This document shows positions 1 through 42,884 of a stretch of 42,884 nucleotides of DNA, in pieces. Made by a program: the position numbers and the translations under genes. Source of the DNA: a virus; the IMG/VR virus record IMGVR_UViG_3300050011_000099. One strand, 5' to 3'. Below the pieces are notes generated by a model that was given only the letters and a program-made list of their open reading frames with translations, did no database searches and was not told the DNA's origin. Numbering within the stretch: the stretch's first letter is position 1; each line of letters starts with the position of its first letter.

Positions 1-144
1 GGCGGCACTCTCGGCGGCACTCTCGGCGGCACTCTCGGCGGCACTCTCGGCGGCACTCTCGGCGGCACTCTCGGCGGCACTCTCGGCGGCACTCTCGGCG
101 GCACTCTCGGCGGCACTCTCGGCGGCACTCCAGGCGGCACTCCT
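1..144 (-). repeat. 12-bp tandem repeat: ggcggcactctc x10 (1-120), then variant units ggcggcactcca and ggcggcactcct. It is coding (E-S-A-A per unit on the minus strand).
   Basis: Read directly from the sequence. Bases 1-130 are identical to bases 42755-42884. Confidence 0.95.
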
Positions 145-579
145 GGCGGCACTTCGTTCTGGTTCGGTCGCCTCACCATTCGCGAAGCGTCGAGCCACGT
201 CGATGCAGTCGCGAACTCGCGTTTCATTGGGCAGGAATGTTTCAAAGGCGGCCAGGGAATCCTCGGCGCAGTCGCACGCGAACAGACGCAGTTTACGTTC
301 GGTCGCTTCTCCCACGACGTATTTGAACCTCATCGATTCGGCGGCGAACTTGTCATCACCATGGTCGATCTCACCCCGAACCTCCACCTCGTAGAGCACC
401 GCGCCGACACCGGGCAGGTGAGTGAGAACGTCCTTCTCCTCCATCCCGTGCCAGCCTGCCGCGCAGATGACGGGCTTCACATTCGGCGTCCAGAGCAAAT
501 CATCGACGGGCCATGGCTTTCCTTGAATCGGACTCGTCCGGTCGGCCAATAGCCATTTGTAGAGCGATTCTTTACTCAT
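1..579 (-). CDS. 5' part of a gene that wraps around the window edges (paralog A). It has a C-x2-GWHG N-terminal domain, a CAED...ARRFANG helical segment and an (E-S-A-A)n array.
   Basis: The ATG at 579-577 is preceded by GAGGAG (585-590, minus strand). The frame stays open for 193 codons to base 1, so the ORF track misses it. My translation: MSKESLYKWLLADRTSPIQGKPWPVDDLLWTPNVKPVICAAGWHGMEEKDVLTHLPG..DDKFAAESMRF..RLFACDCAEDSLAAFETFLPNETRVRDCIDVARRFANGEATEPERSAARSAAWSAAE(SAAE)n. It aligns along its length with the product of 714..1523. Confidence 0.8.
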   Translation of the reverse strand, partial: MSKESLYKWLLADRTSPIQGKPWPVDDLLWTPNVKPVICAAGWHGMEEKDVLTHLPGVGAVLYEVEVRGEIDHGDDKFAAESMRFKYVVGEATERKLRLFACDCAEDSLAAFETFLPNETRVRDCIDVARRFANGEATEPERSAARSAAWSAAESAAESAAESAAESAAESAAESAAESAAESAAESAAESAA

Positions 580-713
580 TTGCTCTCCTCTCGTAGCGGT
601 ACGGCGGCAAGATTTGCTCCACAGGGTGGCGGCCAATCAATTTGGCGGAGAACTTGACGCAGCCGAGGCCGAACTGGCGCGGGCGGTCGAGGTAGGGGTA
701 GGGAGGTCGCTCA

Positions 714-1523
714 TCAGTCGTTTCCTTCCAGACGGATCACAAGCCAGTTGGAGTATTTAGCCCCGGTTGCCTCCCAGGCTGCGGCCCTGGCTGCGGCCCC
801 GGCTGCGTCCCAGGCTGCGGCCCTGGCTGCGGCCCCGGCTGCGGCCCAGGCTGCGTCCCTGGCTGCGGCCCAGGCTGCGGCCCAGGCTGCGGCCCAGGCT
901 GCGTCCCTGGCTGCGGCCCCGGCTGCGTCCCAGGCTGCGGCCCTGGCTGCGGCCCCGGTTGCGGCCCTGGCTGCGTCCCCGGCTGCGTCCCCGGCTGCGT
1001 CCCTTTCCTGGATCGTCGCCTGTCCATTAGCGAAGAGTCGAGCGATTCGGATCGCCTCGGCGGGTCGGTTGTCATCCGGACGGACCTTCAGGAAGAGTGG
1101 CAGCACGTCTTCAGCACAGTCAGCAGAGAAGAGACGAAGATTACAATCGTTCGTGGTCCCCACTGGACGTATCAGCCGCATTGATTCGACAGAAAACTTG
1201 TCGTCACCATCTACCCGAGCCCCGCGGGTTTCAACGACCCAGAGGGTCGCGGTCTCTACCGGAAGGTGAGTGAACACGTCCTTGCCCGTCATACCGTGCC
1301 AGCCTGATTGACAGATAACCGGCTCGCACTTCGGCGTCCAGGCCTTCACCCGCACCGGCCAGCGAAGGTTACGAGTGGGAGATATCTTGTCGCCCACCAG
1401 CCACTTGTAAAGGACCTCGTCGTCGGGTTTCACACACGGCCCTTGCACGATGCATTTTTCGGCTTTCAGCACCCCTATTGCTGTAGCCCGTGAAATCAGT
1501 TCTTCGCCCTTCATGTCACTCAT
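714..1523 (-). CDS. Paralog B of the repeat protein. It has a C-x2-GWHG domain, a CAED...ARLFANG helical segment, a ([W/R/G][A/D]AA)n array and a conserved KYSNWLVIRLE tail.
   Basis: 269-aa ORF. LYKWLVGDKISP..PVICQSGWHGMTGKDVFTHLP..DDKFSVESMRL..RLFSADCAEDVLPLF..AIRIARLFANGQAT matches paralog A. The C-terminal KYSNWLVIRLEGND matches KYSNWLVVRIESEL at 42692-42740. Confidence 0.85.
   Translation of the reverse strand: MSDMKGEELISRATAIGVLKAEKCIVQGPCVKPDDEVLYKWLVGDKISPTRNLRWPVRVKAWTPKCEPVICQSGWHGMTGKDVFTHLPVETATLWVVETRGARVDGDDKFSVESMRLIRPVGTTNDCNLRLFSADCAEDVLPLFLKVRPDDNRPAEAIRIARLFANGQATIQERDAAGDAAGDAARAATGAAARAAAWDAAGAAARDAAWAAAWAAAWAAARDAAWAAAGAAARAAAWDAAGAAARAAAWEATGAKYSNWLVIRLEGND
766..1005 (-). 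repeat. Twenty degenerate 12-bp units of the form gctgcgNcccNg, coding.
   Basis: Units were listed by hand. Units 2-16 differ only at unit positions 7 (g/t) and 11 (t/c/a). Confidence 0.9.
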
Positions 1524-1659
1524 GGGCCGCTAACTTTCGCTTCAGTTCGACAATTTCAGCCTCTAGGCGCTGTATCGTCTCTTCGGCTACTTCCTTGGCA
1601 TTGCGCAATTGGCGCTTGTATTCGTAGAGTTCGCGGCTGTGTTCAAGGTCCTCAGTCAT
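1516..1659 (-). CDS. Small coiled-coil protein of 47 aa, below the ORF-track size cutoff.
   Basis: ATG at 1659-1657 and TGA at 1518-1516. It has 8-nt overlaps with both flanking genes (ATGACTGA and ATGAGTGA). Translation: MTEDLEHSRELYEYKRQLRNAKEVAEETIQRLEAEIVELKRKLAAHE. Confidence 0.55.
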   Translation of the reverse strand: MTEDLEHSRELYEYKRQLRNAKEVAEETIQRLEAEIVELKRKLAAHE

Positions 1660-1924
1660 AATACGGGCTTTCGTAAGTTTCTAATTGGTCAAACAGCTTC
1701 TGTACCTCACGACGAGCGACCAAATACTTCAAGTGAACCACTTGGACCTCGGCGTCAAAGCCCCGATTTACCTCGTCAATCGTGTCCTCGTATTCACTCG
1801 GAGAGCCACCTTCGCGCATCTTCACTGACGCCGCCCGGAGAAGTGTATTTCTCCTTCCTTGCGCACTGCCGACTTCCTCATTGACACAATCAGCCAGTTC
1901 TTCCCTGGCTCTCTCAACACTCAT
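1652..1924 (-). CDS. Hypothetical protein (90 aa).
   Basis: The ORF fills the gap in the coupled minus-strand gene train. No motif recognised. Confidence 0.65.
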   Translation of the reverse strand: MSVERAREELADCVNEEVGSAQGRRNTLLRAASVKMREGGSPSEYEDTIDEVNRGFDAEVQVVHLKYLVARREVQKLFDQLETYESPYYD

Positions 1925-1926
1925 CT

Positions 1927-2199
1927 TTAGCCTTTCTCTACTTCACGTTTCACAAAGCTGGCGTCAGTGTGGGATAACTCTGCTAGTTCGTGGAGATTCA
2001 AATCCCCCAAAAGTCTGCGCCAGATCTCTCGTCGTTCCTCGGTTAACGACGCTGAGGACGTTCTACGGCGCTCTAAAGTCCGGCGGATGACCTTTAGGCG
2101 GTTCATGTCCTCGTGGACGCTTTGGGATACGTCGATAGAGCGTAAATCCCTACGTCGTAAGGGTTTTACCGCGTCGTCAGGGTCGTTAAGCCTAGCCAC
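1927..2199 (-). CDS. Hypothetical basic protein, possibly with a C-terminal HTH. The start is uncertain and the ORF is open to 2286.
   Basis: An in-frame GTG at 2199 lies just after the upstream stop (2192-2194). The longer ATG start would overlap the upstream gene by about 95 nt. LNLHELAELSHTDASFVKREV looks like an HTH. Confidence 0.45.
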   Translation of the reverse strand: MARLNDPDDAVKPLRRRDLRSIDVSQSVHEDMNRLKVIRRTLERRRTSSASLTEERREIWRRLLGDLNLHELAELSHTDASFVKREVEKG

Positions 2200-2518
2200 G
2201 CTTGGCGCACCACACCGTCGCCTGTCGGCCTGATTTGGTAGCCCTGGTACCACCAGAGATGATCCTTCCGGCCTTTTGCAGTTCAATCCTTCGAGGACGG
2301 GCGGTGTTTCCAGCGATTCCAGTAACGATGGAGATTTCCTCGTCGGTCAGTCCGCCCATAGCAGCGCAAATGTAGGTGTAAATAATCTCGCGCAGGGCTT
2401 GGGCGTTGGGCTTCACGCTTACCGCCGCGTCGATGGAAGGCTGAGAGTGAATCTGGAATGGGAGCAGGGGTTCCGGGGCACCCCATAGTTGAGCGATGTT
2501 GAGTCCTCGTTTTTTCAC
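2192..2518 (-). CDS. Small DNA-binding protein, winged-helix-like.
   Basis: The GTG start overlaps the upstream stop (GTGA). LTDEEISIVTGIAGNTARPRRIELQKAGRIISGG has an HTH-plus-wing pattern. Confidence 0.55.
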   Translation of the reverse strand: MKKRGLNIAQLWGAPEPLLPFQIHSQPSIDAAVSVKPNAQALREIIYTYICAAMGGLTDEEISIVTGIAGNTARPRRIELQKAGRIISGGTRATKSGRQATVWCAKRG

Positions 2519-2889
2519 AGCATCTCCAGTTCTCCAGCACTAAGGGCCAGTCCTAACAGGTTGGCCGATTCTCCAAAACCCCCATGAGCGTGAATCCACT
2601 CGTGGTGCGCCAGACAGATGTCCAAGAGATTGGTGATCTGGTTCGACCCTCCCCGGCTCCGATACTTGCGATGGTGGATGTGGACCGCGTAAATACCACA
2701 TCCCACATCGAGGAAATCATCGAGGGCAATCTGAGTCTCTGGAGTGCGCAGCAAGTGATAGAGCACAAAGGTCGCTGCTTCGCAGATTCCTTTAGAACGT
2801 ATCCTGACCAGGGGTTTATACGCTTCAAACTCATTATCGTACGCAGCTTGACGAGCAGATTTACCCTGCTTCATCGGTGTTCTCTTCAT
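2515..2889 (-). CDS. HNH endonuclease.
   Basis: HIHHRKYRSRGGSNQITNLLDICLAHHEWIHAH is a classic H-N-H core. The RBS GGAAAGGAG precedes the ATG. Confidence 0.85.
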   Translation of the reverse strand: MKRTPMKQGKSARQAAYDNEFEAYKPLVRIRSKGICEAATFVLYHLLRTPETQIALDDFLDVGCGIYAVHIHHRKYRSRGGSNQITNLLDICLAHHEWIHAHGGFGESANLLGLALSAGELEML

Positions 2890-20284: not shown

Positions 20285-21295
20285 TTACAGGTCCTCCGTG
20301 GGCGTGTCAACGCCAGCGGTCGTGTTTTGACCAATCGAACTAGCGGATTCTTGACGCCAAATGGAAGCGGAACGGAACACCCCATAGGCGCCCATCCATT
20401 TAAATCCAAGCGGCTGGAAGCGGCGGAGGTAGTCAGTGATCGGGCCCATGACGATGACCGGGTGAGGGCCGTTGCCATCCTTCATTGCCCACACCTTGGC
20501 CAAGGCTTGACGACCTAGGAACAGGGTGCCGTAGACATCGGTGTCGGTGGTCGAAGACCCGGCGTCCGCGAACAGCGGAGCCGTTGGGGTCTCGATGAAC
20601 CTCGCACCAGCGAAGGCGCCGATTTCACCACGGAACACTTCCTCGGGAGCCGAGTAGATGTGCGGGGCGATGAGCGCCTGGTTACCCGACTCTTGCCAGA
20701 GGTCGAAGGACACGTCCGGGTGGATGAAGGTGAGGTAGTACCCACCGTATCCAGGGACGTTGTTGCGCTTCAGGGCCGCCACGTTGTAGCGGATGTCGTA
20801 GGCACGCATCGTGTCCAGTGGGGTGATCTGGTTCCTCGCGGTCGGCGGCTGTCCGGCCGTGCCGACAGTGACGCCAGGACCAGCGGAGTAGTTCACGTTC
20901 GAACCGCCCTGAAGCTGAATCTTCGCCACTTCGTCAACGGTTCGTCCGGCCCAGTAACCAACGGCGTTGGCCTGTACTTCGTCAATGGAGACAAAGGACT
21001 GTGCGCGAACGTCAGCCGTGGTGATGGTGCCACCACCATACTCAGCCAGAGTCAGGGTGACTTGGCTAGAGGTGAGGGCTACCGGCGTGATGTCGGTTGA
21101 CTCATTGAGCGAGGTCGTTGCCAGCGCAAGGTCGTTCTGGACGTTAAAGACAACGCTAGAACCGGCCATTGACTGGTTGGTGGGCTTGATGTCCGCCACT
21201 TGGTCGAAGTACAACTCCGGTCGAAGGGCGTAGTAGGCCAGCATGTCGTACGCAGTCTGTACGTAGTCAACTGTCCCCGTGGTGGTATATGCCAT
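20285..21295 (-). CDS. Major capsid protein, HK97-fold, resembling the N4 gp56-type family.
   Basis: The 336-aa ORF lies directly after the scaffold gene. The TAYDMLAYYALRPELYFDQVA N-terminus, EYGG, IHPDVSFDL and GEIGAFAGARFIETP segments match my memory of that capsid family. Confidence 0.8.
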   Translation of the reverse strand: MAYTTTGTVDYVQTAYDMLAYYALRPELYFDQVADIKPTNQSMAGSSVVFNVQNDLALATTSLNESTDITPVALTSSQVTLTLAEYGGGTITTADVRAQSFVSIDEVQANAVGYWAGRTVDEVAKIQLQGGSNVNYSAGPGVTVGTAGQPPTARNQITPLDTMRAYDIRYNVAALKRNNVPGYGGYYLTFIHPDVSFDLWQESGNQALIAPHIYSAPEEVFRGEIGAFAGARFIETPTAPLFADAGSSTTDTDVYGTLFLGRQALAKVWAMKDGNGPHPVIVMGPITDYLRRFQPLGFKWMGAYGVFRSASIWRQESASSIGQNTTAGVDTPTEDL

Positions 21296-31605: not shown

Positions 31606-32114
31606 CAGCGAAACCGATCAAGGTACGCGATGGCATTGTGCAACAAAAGGGGACTGTCACGCAAATGACCAAGCCCGGAATTGCACGGGCGGCAAAGAAG
31701 TCCGCGAACACATGCGCCGCAACTCTTCTTTCCGGGACAGCATGAATGGTCATGGTCTACAGCCCAGCCGCCTTTCTTGGTACCGGGATCGTCGCCCCCA
31801 CAGATAGCGCAAACCCCTCCTTGCGAAGCCAGAAGATCTAAATAGTCCTGTTCAGTGAGGTTATAGAAATTACGTAGAGCAATGATGCGCTGTTTCGCGT
31901 TCAATTCATCTTTGTTCGCTTCGTAATAAGCCCTGTCGTTTTCCTTGATTCGCTCGGCGTTACGCACACGCCATTCACGATGGTAGGAAGCCTGATATTC
32001 CTTGCGTCCAGAAGTCAATCGACGCTCAGCATCTCGTTCGCGGCCTCGGCGTAGCACCTCCTCGCGATTCGCCTCGCGGTACGCGCGCTGGCGCTCGGCG
32101 TCGTATTTGCTCAT
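31605..32114 (-). CDS. Recombination endonuclease VII family nuclease.
   Basis: CAICGG..WAVDHDHSCC..CVRGLLCRPCNSGLGHL is the Endonuclease_7 signature. It has ATGA overlaps on both sides. Confidence 0.85.
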   Translation of the reverse strand: MSKYDAERQRAYREANREEVLRRGRERDAERRLTSGRKEYQASYHREWRVRNAERIKENDRAYYEANKDELNAKQRIIALRNFYNLTEQDYLDLLASQGGVCAICGGDDPGTKKGGWAVDHDHSCCPGKKSCGACVRGLLCRPCNSGLGHLRDSPLLLHNAIAYLDRFR

Positions 32115-33985
32115 TGGGCTAGAGGACTCGGCGCTTGTTGACTCATGCTTTGTTCTGGACCGCTTTGTGCCGCTGGCTTTCTCAAGTTAGAAAGAATGCT
32201 TGCGAGTGCGCCTTGACCGGGAGGTGGCATCGGAACTCCGCCTTGCACACCGGGAGCGCCCGTCATACCGGGCATCTGTCCCGGAGCCGGGGGTTGACCG
32301 GGAGGCGGTGCGGCTGCTTGCTGCGCGGCTTGTTCCTTTTGCATCTCGGCGTGGACCTTTACCAGAGCGTCTTCAGGATTCGTCTTTCCATCCTGCAACG
32401 CCTGAGCGAAGCGAGCAATGAACGTGGGGTCGATCTGACCCTGTGATGCACCGGTTTCGACACTGCTCATCATGGCCCGGCGAGCACCGCCGATGTTGAT
32501 ACGGGCCATCTCTTCCTGCACGTCTTCGACTACCGGGTCCATCTCCATGAACGTCTCTTGAGAGATCGTTTCCATTTGCAGACGTTGGCCCATGGCGATG
32601 ACAAAAGAGTTGGCGTCGGTCCCGGTCATCCCATACTTCACAACGTTCTGATCGTTGAAGAAGACTTCATCCGGAACGTAGTCGTTCTGAGTTATTTTTC
32701 CGGTTCGTGGGATGTAGAAGGAGAACTGCTTTTTTCCCCAGTGACCCTTGACAACAGCCATCGCCCGGCGGTTCTCGGCTTCCATGGAGTCTTCAAATAT
32801 CTCTTGATGCTCCTGAACCGGCATATCAATCGCTGCACCTAGGACCGCCTCTCCCCTTCGGGCTGTACGGATATTGGTCGCACTTTCTCCGCCCAGTTCC
32901 GCAGGAAGTCCACCTGCCAAACGTCCGGTACGTTCAAGTCGGTCCTGCATTTGGGCTGCTTGAATACTTGGCTGGGTCTGGGTGTCTTGAATCTGGCCAT
33001 TGCGTATCTCTCCGATTGTGTTGGTCAACCCGTCGGCGTAGGTGATTATCTGGGCCTGTCCGGGGGAGTTGGGATGTGAGACCAGCCACCTATCGGCAAA
33101 GATGCTTTGCTTGATTGCGATGTATTCCAGCGCAGCTAACTTCGATGCGTTGTGATAGAGCGGCATCAACTGGTCGAACATGCCGCAGAGTTTGTTGAGT
33201 GTCACACGTCCGGGATAGACCGTTAACGGAATCCCCGCCCGGTTCGGTACGCGAGTCAACTGCACACAACTTTGCGTGCCGACGTTCTCTCTCGTGAACC
33301 CTCCATACTGAGGTCCTTCATTGACTTTCGTTTGTCCTAAAGCCACCAAGACCGTTTCGTCACAGTCGTTGTATTCCAGAATCTCGAACATCGTTGACGG
33401 ACTGGCGTTCTTGCCCTTGTAGAGAACATTAGCTTGGTCGGGATACAGGCTCTGGAGCCACGAGAGGGGTTGTAAGTAGGCGTTGATGCAGTCACTGGGT
33501 TCGATGTCGTTGATGTCCACCGTGGGGGCGGGAAAGACACTCATGGGATTCAACACTCGCCAGTGGGGAATCTCTCTCTTGTCCAACGGATTCACCGCGA
33601 GGAAGGAGATTGACACCGGCGAGGCCCCGTAGCCCAACAGATACCGCGCCCGGCGACGCAGGATCATGTCCATGCGGTTCATATCCCAGTAACTGAGCAA
33701 CGCTTTGCGTTTTGAATCAGTGACGTTCTCCGACCCTTTTTGACCGGGCTTTAAAGGGTCACAGGAGATGTCCGGCATCGTCGAGGCAATACGCATGGCC
33801 AGTTGGTCGAGGCCCGGACCAAGCAAGTTGACGGCCATGGATTTCTCGTCTTTGTCTAATTCACTAACGGGCACGACGACATCGCCATCGGCCTGACGGT
33901 TGACCTCCGCCCAACGAGTGAGGAGAGGTCCGCGCTCTGCTTGACGTTCTCGGTACCAGTTCTCGATCTGGAAGATGTCAATCAC
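32111..33985 (-). CDS. Portal protein (624 aa) with a P/Q/G-rich C-terminal tail.
   Basis: The call rests on position directly after TerL and on size. No specific motif was verified. Confidence 0.7.
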   Translation of the reverse strand: MIDIFQIENWYRERQAERGPLLTRWAEVNRQADGDVVVPVSELDKDEKSMAVNLLGPGLDQLAMRIASTMPDISCDPLKPGQKGSENVTDSKRKALLSYWDMNRMDMILRRRARYLLGYGASPVSISFLAVNPLDKREIPHWRVLNPMSVFPAPTVDINDIEPSDCINAYLQPLSWLQSLYPDQANVLYKGKNASPSTMFEILEYNDCDETVLVALGQTKVNEGPQYGGFTRENVGTQSCVQLTRVPNRAGIPLTVYPGRVTLNKLCGMFDQLMPLYHNASKLAALEYIAIKQSIFADRWLVSHPNSPGQAQIITYADGLTNTIGEIRNGQIQDTQTQPSIQAAQMQDRLERTGRLAGGLPAELGGESATNIRTARRGEAVLGAAIDMPVQEHQEIFEDSMEAENRRAMAVVKGHWGKKQFSFYIPRTGKITQNDYVPDEVFFNDQNVVKYGMTGTDANSFVIAMGQRLQMETISQETFMEMDPVVEDVQEEMARINIGGARRAMMSSVETGASQGQIDPTFIARFAQALQDGKTNPEDALVKVHAEMQKEQAAQQAAAPPPGQPPAPGQMPGMTGAPGVQGGVPMPPPGQGALASILSNLRKPAAQSGPEQSMSQQAPSPLAQ

Positions 33986-33994
33986 GTTGGCATT

Positions 33995-35869
33995 CTAAAC
34001 TCTCTGCGGGGATTTTCCGAGCCATGATGGACGACGACTGGTTGAGGGTGATTTGGACACCGGCACCACCAAGTACTGCATCTGGAACATCGCGAACCAG
34101 GTGGACATGGTTAGGTCCGTAGTCGAGGATTCCGGGTAGCGAGTCACTTCATCGACAAGTCGCATAGATATTGCCCTGCCGATTCCTTTACCCGGTAAAC
34201 GAACCCGTCCGAACTTGAAGTTCGGCGCAATCATCTGGACCCCATACTCCTCGTCAGTCTTGTTCCTATGGGTGTCGTGGGGGATAATCATCACACTGTT
34301 TTTGCTCTGCCACCTTTGGGTGAAGTCGTAGGCGTAGAGGTACTTCTGCGCCCCGTTGCGTTCAATAATCCAGTGGCTTATCGGTATCCCCAAGTCCCGA
34401 GAGGTCTGTTGCCACTCATCCATCAAACCTGAGAACGTCCCGTTGTTCTGGTTCCAATCTAAGAAATCAGGCGCGTCCATGCCCTTTTTTTCGAGGTCGA
34501 TTAAAAACCATTGGTCCGAAGGTTCGTTATAGAGCCACCAGGTGATCCCCCAGTACCTACTAGGGCTTGGGTCCACCGAGACGATGGAATAGGACGGACT
34601 AGCAAGATTCCGAGGGAACTCCAACCTCCCGCGGTCCTTGTCCCAACACCCCAAGTAATTGCCGTAGCCGTTAATCCAGGCGGGGTCCACTAAGACTGAG
34701 GAAGCCGCCACGTCCTCTTGCTGATAGACCTGCGCGTACTTGTCGGGGCGGTTCTTCAGCATGGAAGAAATCTCGCGCCAGGCGCACCTTCTTGGGCTTA
34801 AGAGGCATCCCTCGGGATAGGGCGGCGTGTTCTGCTTGTGCTTTCCCTGACACAGTTCCTCGTAGTGGGCTCTGTAGACGATGTGGTGGTACTTCCTCGG
34901 CAACCCGTCTTCGCTTACCCGTAACTCAATCTCTTCTTCCTCGTCGTCATCGTCATCCTGGGTCACTTCCATGTCGAGGCAGTATCTATATAAGTCGTTG
35001 GCCCCCATCCGCTGGCCCTGGAGGATGAGTAAACCGCCGGGTTCCAAACGTCGTTCGGCGTAGGAGTCCCACCAGTCCCGGTCCTTCTCGATCATCTCGA
35101 TGGTCCGTAATCTGTTAGACGTAACGAGGTCGTCCCAGATGCAGAAGTCGTACCTTCCCCCAATGAACTCCTGATCCCTACCTACCGCTGTCCACGTTGG
35201 TTCCTTCGAGGTAATAGAGGCCCCGTCAAACTGCTGGACGATGAAGGCGTCCTTGGTCCAGGACTCGTGATCTACCGGTTTGAACCTGCCAAAGTCCTCG
35301 GAAAGAGTAGCGACGGCATCCACGGCGACTCCTTTGAGTTTGTCCTCGTCGTCGGCCAGGATGGGTAGTGTCGCTTCAAGTGCCCTCCTTACAAGTGCTG
35401 TGTACTGCCCGGCCAACTTCGCAGTCGCGCTACCTACTAAGCCTCTAATCGCCCTATCCTTGACAGTCAACCACAGGGGTAGGGCGTAGGTGAAGTGCGA
35501 GGACTTCCCAGCCCCCGGAGGGGCATTCACAACCACGTACTCCTTCTCCTGGGTGACCAGCAGGCTCTCAATCTCGTGAGCCGATTGCTCCTGCCACGGC
35601 AGTCCAATCCGTCCTAGATACCGCAACTGGAAGTAGTTGAAGTCCGTCAACGCCCTTTTGGCCTCCGGGCACAGTTCCCTCGCCCTGATTGGATCAGGCT
35701 GGTTTCGAGCCAGCCGGGCGGAAGTCGTATATTGCCCTCTGTCGGGATGGCGGTTATCGTGATTCTTCGCACTACCTATGGATATCGAGGCAAGCCGGGC
35801 GGCCTTGGTCTGGTTTAACCCCTTGGCCCTGGCTTCCTCATAGATCGTCCACTGCTGCTGGGAAATCAC
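33995..35869 (-). CDS. terL: Terminase large subunit with an N-terminal HTH extension.
   Basis: Walker A is VVNAPPGAGKS and Walker B-like is FCIWDDLV. The nuclease-domain segment is IVSVDPSPS. The N-terminal LNQTKAARLASISIGSAKNH is an HTH. An acidic insert reads DDDDDEEEEIE. The start is GTG with no clear SD. Confidence 0.9.
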   Translation of the reverse strand: MISQQQWTIYEEARAKGLNQTKAARLASISIGSAKNHDNRHPDRGQYTTSARLARNQPDPIRARELCPEAKRALTDFNYFQLRYLGRIGLPWQEQSAHEIESLLVTQEKEYVVVNAPPGAGKSSHFTYALPLWLTVKDRAIRGLVGSATAKLAGQYTALVRRALEATLPILADDEDKLKGVAVDAVATLSEDFGRFKPVDHESWTKDAFIVQQFDGASITSKEPTWTAVGRDQEFIGGRYDFCIWDDLVTSNRLRTIEMIEKDRDWWDSYAERRLEPGGLLILQGQRMGANDLYRYCLDMEVTQDDDDDEEEEIELRVSEDGLPRKYHHIVYRAHYEELCQGKHKQNTPPYPEGCLLSPRRCAWREISSMLKNRPDKYAQVYQQEDVAASSVLVDPAWINGYGNYLGCWDKDRGRLEFPRNLASPSYSIVSVDPSPSRYWGITWWLYNEPSDQWFLIDLEKKGMDAPDFLDWNQNNGTFSGLMDEWQQTSRDLGIPISHWIIERNGAQKYLYAYDFTQRWQSKNSVMIIPHDTHRNKTDEEYGVQMIAPNFKFGRVRLPGKGIGRAISMRLVDEVTRYPESSTTDLTMSTWFAMFQMQYLVVPVSKSPSTSRRPSWLGKSPQRV

Positions 35870-41722: not shown

Positions 41723-42009
41723 TCGCGGGGCTCCCCAGGCTCAGAAAACGAAACGCACGCGGGCCATTTCAGCCTGATGTCTGTTGCAGGACCGTTCGTG
41801 GCGTTCAGTTCGCATTTGATGTAGCGCCCGTGACGAACGCAGTGAGCGCACTCGCCGCAGATTCCTTCTCCCCTCAGAGCGCGGCGCGAAACGGGATGCA
41901 TCCCTCTGTCGAGCCACGCCTGATTTCGCAGCGTCCGACGCTTGTCAATACTGAGTTTCTCGTCAAGCGGCTTCTCTATCGCTGGCAAATCGAAAAGTGC
42001 GTCGCTCAT
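41719..42009 (-). CDS. Hypothetical Cys-rich protein (96 aa).
   Basis: ATGA overlaps at both ends. The motif is CGECAHC..KC...PAC. Confidence 0.6.
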   Translation of the reverse strand: MSDALFDLPAIEKPLDEKLSIDKRRTLRNQAWLDRGMHPVSRRALRGEGICGECAHCVRHGRYIKCELNATNGPATDIRLKWPACVSFSEPGEPRE

Positions 42010-42695
42010 TCTTGCGGCCCTACAGAAAACGTCACGAAATCCCAGTCCTCGTCGTACGATTCGGCGGTGAAGGTGTAGTTAAGTTCCATCGCCAGGAGTT
42101 CCAACTGAGGACGAAGCGCCGGGCACTCGTAGTCGCTCAGAACGGTCGGGCGTCCACTTTTCAGTCGGTGGCGCAGGTCCGAATAGCGAACGCCGCACAC
42201 GAAGGCGTGGTCATCGAGCGTGCCGCCTCCGGATTTACACACGACGAACGGGACCACCAATTCGTGCTCGTGCTCGACAGGTGGCGCCAGCGAAGTTCCG
42301 CAGTCGGGGCAGAATGCATAATCAATAGATTCGTCCGACCAAAGAATGGTGGTCAAGTCTCCATTTTCATCATAAGAATCCAAGCATGTGTGATTTGTCG
42401 GGCACCCCCCCACGCTCGGTGCAACGGGAGGCGCGGACGATTCAAGTTCATTGATTTGCTCAATGAGTTCCGAGTACACGGTCTTTGCGATTCGGCTTCG
42501 GACTCGGGCGACCGTGTACAACATCGCCAGTCGGTTTGCTTCGGGCAGTTCTTCAAACGAGACTGGCGTTTGTGACTGCCAGCCAAATCGAGCAGCTTCC
42601 TCCTCGTACACGTCGTGGAAGAGTCGCGCCATTTCAAGATTTTCAGGGCTCCACGCTATCGGCGGTACGGGTGATACATCGGGGGTGGGGGTCAT
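42006..42695 (-). CDS. Protein (229 aa) with an N-terminal RyR-like domain and a Cys-rich C-terminal half.
   Basis: LFHDVYEEEAARFGWQSQTPVSFEELPEANRLAMLYTV resembles the H-x-W...GW-x-G...(Y/F)-x-x-L-P-E pattern of bacterial and phage RyR domains. The call is from memory of the motif. Confidence 0.5.
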   Translation of the reverse strand: MTPTPDVSPVPPIAWSPENLEMARLFHDVYEEEAARFGWQSQTPVSFEELPEANRLAMLYTVARVRSRIAKTVYSELIEQINELESSAPPVAPSVGGCPTNHTCLDSYDENGDLTTILWSDESIDYAFCPDCGTSLAPPVEHEHELVVPFVVCKSGGGTLDDHAFVCGVRYSDLRHRLKSGRPTVLSDYECPALRPQLELLAMELNYTFTAESYDEDWDFVTFSVGPQE

Positions 42696-42884
42696 AGTTC
42701 GCTCTCGATTCGCACGACGAGCCAGTTTGAGTATTTGTTCCAGACGGCACTCCTGGCGGCACTCTCGGCGGCACTCTCGGCGGCACTCTCGGCGGCACTC
42801 TCGGCGGCACTCTCGGCGGCACTCTCGGCGGCACTCTCGGCGGCACTCTCGGCGGCACTCTCGGCGGCACTCTCGGCGGCACTC
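42692..42884 (-). CDS. 3' part of the wrap-around repeat gene (paralog A).
   Basis: The frame through the 12-mers reads (SAAE)n SAARSAVWNKYSNWLVVRIESEL, then TGA at 42694-42692. That stop overlaps the next ATG (ATGA). The ORF track lists only the wrong-frame PPRV ORF here. Confidence 0.8.
   Translation of the reverse strand, partial: SAAESAAESAAESAAESAAESAAESAAESAAESAAESAAESAARSAVWNKYSNWLVVRIESEL
42743..42884 (-). repeat. 12-bp tandem repeat: one variant unit gacggcactcct, then ggcggcactctc x10.8.
   Basis: Read directly. Bases 42755-42884 are identical to 1-130. Confidence 0.95.

Follow-up and report, generated by a model that had tools for sequence, protein, structure and literature searches.

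Tandem phage genes with rapidly varying Ala-Ala-x-y arrays on a DUF7666 and Imm5-like scaffold

We analysed a 42,884-nt stretch of viral DNA, IMG/VR record IMGVR_UViG_3300050011_000099 (hereafter the window), which is a tailed-phage genome with recognisable large terminase, portal and major head proteins (Pfam/PHROGs). Two adjacent minus-strand genes, here called paralogs A and B, each encode a DUF7666 domain, an Imm5-like helical segment, a tandem array of four-residue units and a conserved tail. The arrays belong to a type that we write as AA-x-y: 12-nt units in which two alanine codons are fixed and two further codons, x and y, vary. These arrays are under concerted evolution, with diversity retained at two nucleotides per unit, and they differ between phages whose flanking sequence is nearly identical. 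The features of the pair are as follows.

714..1523, minus strand: paralog B coding sequence, 269 aa, with N-terminal extension, DUF7666 domain, Imm5-like helices, 20-unit array and C-terminal tail (open reading frame (ORF) listing, translation, Pfam).
1155..1418, minus strand: DUF7666-type beta-rich domain of paralog B, residues 36-123, with LYKWL, C71-x2-G-W-H76 and GDDKF (AlphaFold, Foldseek, 51 homologues).
1008..1148, minus strand: conserved Imm5-like helical core of paralog B, residues 126-172, LRLFSADCAEDVLP...RPAEAIRIARLFANG (Pfam PF21805, AlphaFold).
768..1007, minus strand: paralog B array, 20 x 12 nt, GCC-NGG-GNC-GCA encoding A-[W/R/G]-[A/D]-A, residues 173-252 (unit table, Tandem Repeats Finder (TRF), pattern search, GC profile).
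714..767, minus strand: degenerate last unit (TGAK), conserved tail KYSNWLVIRLEGND and stop codon of paralog B (translation; tail kept in A and close homologues).
580..713, minus strand: spacer between B and A, with the ribosome-binding site GAGAGGAGAG before the A ATG (sequence, promoter and terminator scan).
154..579, minus strand: N-terminal part of paralog A, DUF7666 domain and Imm5-like helices (translation, Pfam, 52% identity to B).
1..153, minus strand: upstream (5') part of the paralog A array, with CGA-AGT (R), AGG-AGT (R) and TGG-AGT (W) units and then a perfect GAG-AGT-GCC-GCC (ESAA) run that leaves the window start (TRF, translation).
42745..42884, minus strand: downstream (3') part of the paralog A array, a perfect ESAA run and then an RSAV unit (TRF, translation).
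42692..42744, minus strand: tail WNKYSNWLVVRIESEL and stop codon of paralog A, the stop overlapping the ATG of the next ORF (42695..42006).

The two genes share one architecture and are probably expressed together. Over 135 non-array residues A and B are 52% identical, and they have the KYSNWLV tail in common. This bears out the initial annotation, made from the letters of the window alone, which described a minus-strand tandem pair; all the motifs it picked out (LYKWL, C-x2-GWHG, DDKF and CAED..AR.FANG) are present. Because a scan of the spacer at 580..713 found no terminator-like site, co-transcription of B and A is probable. The same scan found no minus-strand promoter, the RNA fold of the spacer is unremarkable (z = 0.47), and A is preceded by a strong ribosome-binding site.

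Variation in the paralog B array is confined to two amino-acid-changing nucleotides per unit. All six combinations of W/R/G with A/D occur, the wobble positions are all fixed, and the core units contain zero synonymous differences. Edge units aside, just one change falls outside the two variable nucleotides, GCC>ACC (Thr) at 948-959. The unit table thus agrees with the 20 units, invariant wobbles and six combinations first listed, and places the array at 768..1007. A two-unit pattern search gave 19 occurrences in the array and 0 in 100 shuffles, and the array stands out as a sharp GC peak of about 82%. Its codon choice is equally narrow: Arg is always AGG, Gly always GGG and one Ala codon always GCA, although in the large genes of the phage they account for just 16%, 20% and 12% of the synonymous codons. 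Such exclusive use of minor codons indicates that the units are copies of each other rather than products of codon preference.

Two further regularities of the B array are visible at larger scale. TRF reported a 36-nt super-period besides the 12-nt period over 760..1004, and units often succeed one another as R-W-G, suggesting that blocks of three units were duplicated recently. On the coding (minus) strand of 768..1007 a GGG or GGGG tract recurs every 12 nt, giving G-quadruplex potential in both DNA and mRNA; the A array has no such tracts.

Paralog A is a continuous gene that the ends of the window cut in two. Its N-terminal part occupies 579..1 and its C-terminal part 42884..42692, with ten identical ESAA units at each end of the window, flanked by RSAA and WSAA units on one side and by RSAV on the other. 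Joined end to end as they stand, the parts total 772 nt, one nucleotide out of frame. Each end of the window carries an identical 130-nt stretch of perfect 12-nt repeat (1..130 = 42755..42884), bordered by different unique sequence, and any overlap of 10+12n nt, up to exactly 130 nt, restores the frame. The contig therefore broke inside the paralog A array, being cut in it or circularised through it, and the number of ESAA units is known only as at least ten.

An independent contig from the Joint Genome Institute (JGI) resolves the continuity of the gene. This contig, L001, is 2713 nt long and spans the window junction; it encodes paralog B, an intact 197-aa paralog A with seven ESAA units and the start of the next gene. 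Since L001 crosses the junction with an intact ORF, paralog A is real and uninterrupted. The initial annotation had wrapped A around the window ends and called its array homogenised; the single gene and the perfect ESAA run both stand, whereas the literal join fails and the unit count is only a lower bound. Beyond A, L001 and the window part company at a sharp mosaic junction, at about 42277 in the window (inside ORF 42695..42006) and about 2029 in L001, with about 99.9% identity before it and unrelated sequence after it. The gene downstream of A consequently has a common 5' part and differing 3' parts, encoding 229 aa in the window and 144 aa in L001.

Both conserved domains correspond to Pfam families. 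The helical segment and array score above the 25-bit cut-off of Pfam Imm5_like (PF21805) in both paralogs, with 37.4 bits in B (residues 128-204) and 32.5 bits in A (residues 91-177), as the initial annotation's comparison with Imm5-like proteins had anticipated. Most homologues carry a precomputed PF21805 match and some also match PF14423. The N-terminal C-x2-G-W-H domain, which the initial annotation likened to an uncharacterised family of phages and prophages with a C-x2-G-[FW]-H motif, is DUF7666 (PF24703). This assignment draws on a sub-threshold hidden Markov model match in A (23.5 bits against a gathering score of 27 bits; B has no reported match), on precomputed PF24703 matches in many close homologues, and on Foldseek matches of the domain in BFVD to DUF7666 proteins of Pseudomonas phage PspYZU05, Sylvanvirus and Hyperionvirus (E 3e-4 to 1e-3, prob 1.00). 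A literature search on DUF7666, PF21805, Imm5_like and PF14423 found no papers.

Structure models define the domains well and the array poorly. In an AlphaFold2 model of paralog B built with a 51-sequence alignment, the strands of the N-terminal domain (38-123) have a predicted local distance difference test score (pLDDT) above 90, and confident helices cover 126-193, with helices 126-147 and 153-165 at about 90. The array falls below 50, and the tail helix rises again to 75-89. The initial annotation had proposed checking whether the array forms one long Ala-faced helix, and the model shows no confident single helix there. A homologue with only three units, P0013 (163 aa), models at pLDDT 89.9 with a predicted template modelling (pTM) score of 0.83; its tail helix reaches about 90 and the array segment alone is poorly defined. 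The high confidence of the tail helix suggests that it may dock back on the protein body, so that the array would be a variable-length excursion between two anchors. Across the 51 homologues R130, L131, F132, A133, D135, C136 and A137 of B are nearly invariant.

Neither model resembles a solved structure at significance. Foldseek searches of the PDB with B and P0013 returned nothing at E <= 0.001; the best match of the helical core is SsdAI (7jtu_B), itself non-significant (E = 0.98, prob 0.66, 63 columns; E = 2.9 with the short-array model). A PDB sequence search with the family profile gave chance-level matches only, and an NCBIfam search gave only low-complexity noise. In the DUF7666 domain of the 51 homologues C71, H76 and W62 are invariant and K40, E98 and K109 near-invariant, which hints at a metal or catalytic site. 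The domain's only PDB resemblance is to Arr rifampin ADP-ribosyltransferase, at a non-significant E of 0.15. In BFVD, fusions of the domain to repeats of other types (pentapeptide, ankyrin, DUF4116) are frequent.

The AA-x-y array is the rule throughout this protein family. A word-indexed search with the non-array part of B recovered 79 homologues, essentially all with AA-x-y arrays of differing lengths, so the notion of an array peculiar to one locus is not borne out. An exhaustive phmmer scan extended the family to 1,417 cluster representatives at E <= 1e-3, from clusters built at 50% identity (about 1,400). Relatives number at least 124 in IMG/VR and 27 in GTDB genomes, the latter mostly contigs of metagenome-assembled genomes (MAGs) from many phyla. 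A tblastn search of 50,697 GenBank phage records with the 181 non-array residues gave no match. Among 213 family proteins the median array has 6 units, within a range from a few to 30; position x is R 347 times, W 346 and G 279, and position y is A 559 times and D 439.

Nucleotide statistics show that the arrays are under concerted evolution and that diversity persists at two nucleotides per unit. We examined 31 independent arrays with 10 or more units. The minor-base fraction averages 0.46 for the first nucleotide of the unit and 0.41 for the fifth; it falls to 0.08-0.09 for the x and y wobbles and to 0.00-0.04 within the Ala codons. The Ala wobble bases are uniform within an array yet differ between arrays (GCA-GCC, GCT-GCG, GCC-GCT, GCG-GCG and others), which is the mark of concerted evolution. 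Position x is encoded by TGG (159), GGG (106), AGG (100) or CGG (65) and position y by GCY or GAY. Other codons within one step of these (TTG, TCG and TGT for x, GGC and GTC for y) seldom occur, which argues for selection on the encoded residues. The contrast drawn earlier between a variable B array and a homogenised A array is present, but it fits a family picture in which all arrays examined are homogenised at Ala codons and wobbles and differ in their x/y variation.

Close relatives reveal that the arrays change far faster than their surroundings. Outside the arrays, L001 and the window are about 99.9% identical, with 2 substitutions in 1,681 nt. Within 225 nt of the B array there are 10 substitutions, all at first or second codon positions of x or y (odds ratio 39, p = 2e-8), together with a 24-nt indel (20 units in the window, 18 in L001). 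The A array has seven ESAA units in L001 against at least ten in the window, plus one WSAA unit. In a second pair of contigs, L110 and L003, flanks that are 98.8-99.5% identical enclose arrays of 3 and 25 units. A reshuffling of existing unit types by in-register slippage or unequal recombination would produce such a pattern; a TGG-ACC unit in L001 requires a point change. The polymorphism that the initial annotation proposed to look for in related genomes is seen in these assemblies, in unit number and x-y pattern between L001 and the window and in length between L110 and L003. Its proposals of slippage or gene conversion, selection at two positions and variable length draw support from these near-identical relatives and from the statistics of the 31 arrays.

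Arrays of this kind systematically break short-read assemblies. Because they defeat short-read assemblers, the length of any individual array should be treated cautiously. Among 80 IMG/VR loci, 18 lie on contigs that stop no more than 300 nt past the ORF, and 13 on contigs that stop inside the gene. The window, L003 (L003:3-737) and L110 (L110:9792-9869), which are related contigs of about 42 kb each, all start or stop in this gene.

The closest known counterpart of these arrays is gp54 of mycobacteriophage Tweety. Pham et al. 2007 reported that the centre of gp54 is a high-GC core with 48 tetrapeptide repeats, each encoded by 12 bp. Positions one to six of the unit (Ala-Ala) and all third-codon positions are constant, and the differences lie at first and second codon positions (PMC2884959). 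Near-identical gp54 relatives have 48, 26 and 15 units, from which the authors inferred selection for variation (PMC2884959). We re-derived the nucleotide signature of gp54 from EF536069. According to two reviews citing Dedrick et al. 2017 (PMC9262239, PMC8549241), Tweety defence-escape mutants gain or lose gp54 repeats, which tunes a counter-defence against the Phrann gp29/gp30 and MichelleMyBell prophage defences; its mechanism has been called obscure (PMC8549241). The initial annotation knew of no function for such an architecture in a phage, a statement overtaken by this work on Tweety.

A and B resemble gp54 at the level of the array without belonging to its family. The gp54 family (1,209 matches, equal to phrog_3416) includes Tweety gp54, Che8 gp57 and PMC gp51, and shares with A and B the AA-x-y array in 12-bp units with invariant Ala codons and third positions, a peak of GC content at the array, flanks that are conserved on both the N- and the C-terminal side, and a site among small non-structural genes. 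Unit number varies among near-identical phages in both groups: 48/26/15 in gp54, and 20 against 18, at least 10 against 7, and 25 against 3 here. Many gp54-family members, P0080, P0082 and P0106 among them, use AAES/AAWS/AARS units, the same tetrapeptides as paralog A. Unlike A and B, gp54 lacks the DUF7666 and Imm5_like domains and indeed has no Pfam match. Its alphabet is G/W/Q with S/Y, in contrast to W/R/G with A/D in B, and its hosts are Actinobacteria, whereas relatives of the window's genes occur in MAGs of many phyla. Many other gp54-family members (P0108, P0110, P0114 and others) have in place of the array a globular helical segment beginning ...AAWDAADRAARA..., which suggests that arrays may have arisen by expansion of a short Ala-rich helix.

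Homology between the two scaffolds was rejected at the sensitivity of our profile comparisons. The profile of the family of A and B aligned to the gp54-family profile with an hhalign probability of 19% over 26 columns adjoining the array, and alignment to gp54 itself covered the array only. The match of paralog A to phrog_3416 likewise vanished once the array was removed, and the tblastn search of GenBank phages gave no match to the non-array residues.

Other known systems share single features with A and B. With Imm5/Imm5_like proteins (PF14423, PF21805) they share the helical core RLFAADCAE...RP..AI..AR.FA.G; Imm5 is described as mostly alpha-helical with conserved R and D (PMC3482391), which matches A and B, and multi-copy arrangements occur in both. 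Unlike classical Imm5, A and B are phage-borne and fused to DUF7666, have a last helix grown into a long hypervariable array, and adjoin no toxin. The VR2 region of bbp36 in Bordetella phage BMP-1, as cited within PMC2884959, is also a tandem in-frame repeat in a non-essential phage gene, with a copy number of 9-20 between isolates; by that description it differs in its 24-bp unit and its peptide. Variable-number tandem-repeat proteins under concerted evolution are alike in gaining and losing in-frame units and in homogenising silent sites. Unlike that general class, A and B have a four-residue unit with two fixed Ala and diversity at two nucleotides per unit.

We propose that A and B are tunable inhibitors built on an immunity-type fold, in which the length of the array and its x-y make-up would adjust each protein to a host or prophage effector and the two paralogs would cover two targets; we assign this a probability of roughly 0.55. 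In this scheme the arrays change by in-register slippage or unequal recombination between 12-nt units, a process that keeps Ala codons and wobbles identical within each array. Unit number and order shift far faster than the rest of the genome, and only two bases of the unit stay diverse, base one of codon x (NGG = W/R/G) and base two of codon y (GCY/GAY = A/D), whose residues most likely occupy exposed positions. The tail helix would dock on the body and leave the array as an excursion between two fixed anchors. By analogy with gp54 we infer a role in counter-defence or in neutralising a toxin of the host or a prophage. Target specificity would then depend on the number and composition of the units, and two paralogs with different arrays may serve two targets. 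The analysis establishes the concerted evolution and strain-level hypervariability of the arrays as well as architecture and family, whereas tail docking, exposure of x and y and counter-defence are our interpretation.

Several points weigh against this proposal. The functional analogy to gp54 rests on the array alone, and the hhalign and phrog_3416 results above give no detectable homology of the flanking domains. No toxin, defence or anti-defence gene was recognised among the neighbours with Pfam, PHROGs and PADLOC. The array model has low confidence, and docking of the tail is read from confidence values rather than from contacts. All relatives compared are short-read metagenome assemblies, able to collapse or mis-order arrays, and some of the apparent length differences, the 3 against 25 units above all, may be assembly artefacts.

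A bolder form of the same idea is doubtful on present evidence. The AA-x-y array might be a portable tuning module carried on at least two unrelated scaffolds, that of gp54 and that of DUF7666 plus Imm5-like, to which phages attached it either independently or by exchange. How many x-y pairs there are and how they are ordered (W/R/G with A/D in B, E/W/R-S in A) would then be a rapidly re-writable specificity code matching an inhibitor to host or prophage defence or toxin effectors, with tandem paralogs extending its range. If true, the family of about 1,400 clusters would represent a large unexplored class of evolvable anti-defence proteins on a toxin-immunity fold.

A and B may instead be classical immunity proteins, an explanation that we hold to be unlikely. 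The Imm5-like module would neutralise a specific polymorphic toxin, for example a DYW/BaDTF2-type deaminase or a CdiA-CT from competitors or the host; two copies would protect the infected cell or lysogen, and the array would be an incidental appendage. The above-threshold Imm5_like matches in both paralogs favour it, as does PMC3482391, where Imm5 is listed as immunity against DYW deaminases and CdiAC and also among the components of polyimmunity proteins. SsdAI, the best fold match of the core, is the immunity protein of SsdA, a DYW-family/BaDTF2 deaminase toxin (PMC7901873); the match agrees with the Imm5 listing but, being non-significant and accompanied by an empty PDB sequence search, is not evidence alone. 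Giant multi-module Imm5-like proteins exist, and the tandem pair resembles a small polyimmunity locus. Yet Pfam, PHROGs and PADLOC show no toxin gene or domain nearby and no other immunity domain among the neighbours, and the pair is the only multi-copy feature. Classical immunity also leaves the hypervariability and concerted evolution of arrays across phage members unexplained, and it overlaps the proposal of tunable inhibitors instead of excluding it.

The giant proteins P0213 (2410 aa), P0244 (3069 aa), P0224 (1789 aa), P0212 and P0218 comprise 3-11 tandem Imm5-like helical modules without long AA-x-y arrays and resemble polyimmunity proteins of polymorphic toxin systems.

It is improbable that the arrays are neutral, unstable low-complexity linkers. 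On this account slippage varies length and order, homogenisation erases silent differences, and W/R/G and A/D are tolerated single-nucleotide neighbours of a founder unit. The variation does lie within reach of single-base toggles (NGG, GMC), the array is modelled at low confidence, and some family members have 2-3 units or none. Against neutrality, the same x/y alphabet recurs on different wobble backgrounds and on scaffolds only 35-40% identical, which is hard to explain without selection, and other single-step neighbour codons are rare at x and y. Changes in gp54 repeat number also have a strong phenotype in Tweety (PMC9262239).

A role at the level of DNA or RNA, as replication-origin iterons, a recombination hotspot or a G-quadruplex tract with the coding pattern secondary, is very improbable. 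The GGG tract every 12 nt on the B coding strand, the sharp GC peak and the starts or stops of related phage contigs at arrays would suit it. The A array behaves alike without G tracts, contig ends at arrays are explained by short-read assembly failure, and amino-acid periodicity and alphabet are kept while wobbles differ between arrays, pointing to a constraint on the protein.

We give almost no credence to targeted mutagenesis by a diversity-generating retroelement, or to the arrays being assembly artefacts: although only two nucleotide positions vary, with A allowed at one of them, and the window itself broke in the paralog A array, the retroelement is rejected because no second copy of the unit pattern serves as a template in the window, no scanned ORF matches a reverse transcriptase, and the y codon is almost only GCY/GAY, with GGC and GTC nearly absent, unlike A-to-N mutagenesis, while arrays recur in independent assemblies, many samples and the isolate phage genomes of the gp54 type. 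A classical contingency (phase-variable) locus was also rejected: the 12-nt unit lies inside the ORF, all observed length variants stay in frame, and what varies is length and sequence rather than an on/off state.

In the literature searched, no AA-x-y array protein other than Tweety gp54 has a reported function. The repeat itself was therefore already known from a phage protein; new here is a different and environmentally widespread scaffold. The same 12-bp device, with its nucleotide signature and strain-level instability, now appears on a Pfam-recognisable, toxin-immunity-like scaffold that is common in uncultured phages of many environments. This scaffold offers a lead on the binding targets of array proteins, namely toxin-like effectors, and natural variants in length and composition are available to test how repeat number tunes specificity. 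Array lengths in databases are not trustworthy, as arrays break short-read assemblies.

The surroundings of the pair hold few genes of recognisable function. Pfam and PHROGs assigned the neighbouring ORFs only to an HNH endonuclease and to families without known function, and PADLOC gave no match for A, B, the downstream ORF or gp54. Other features of the window are the following.

1516..1659: 47-aa ORF, coiled-coil-like, upstream of paralog B, its stop overlapping the B start.
2515..2889: HNH endonuclease.
20285..21295: major head protein.
32111..33985: portal protein.
33995..35869: large terminase.

Related loci show recurring gene orders. The order HNH endonuclease, 47-aa ORF and DUF7666/Imm5-like gene (1516..2889 in the window) is common to L110:7428-8492, whose gene is about 79% identical. 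At L111:6001-8163 (ENA contig_70416, 44,887 nt) the Imm5-like P0012, the related but N-terminally shorter P0050 and a third ORF of 151 aa follow in succession, and P0012 and P0050 are each followed by a 42-aa ORF. The arrangement in L111 suggests that the module may have undergone repeated tandem duplication.

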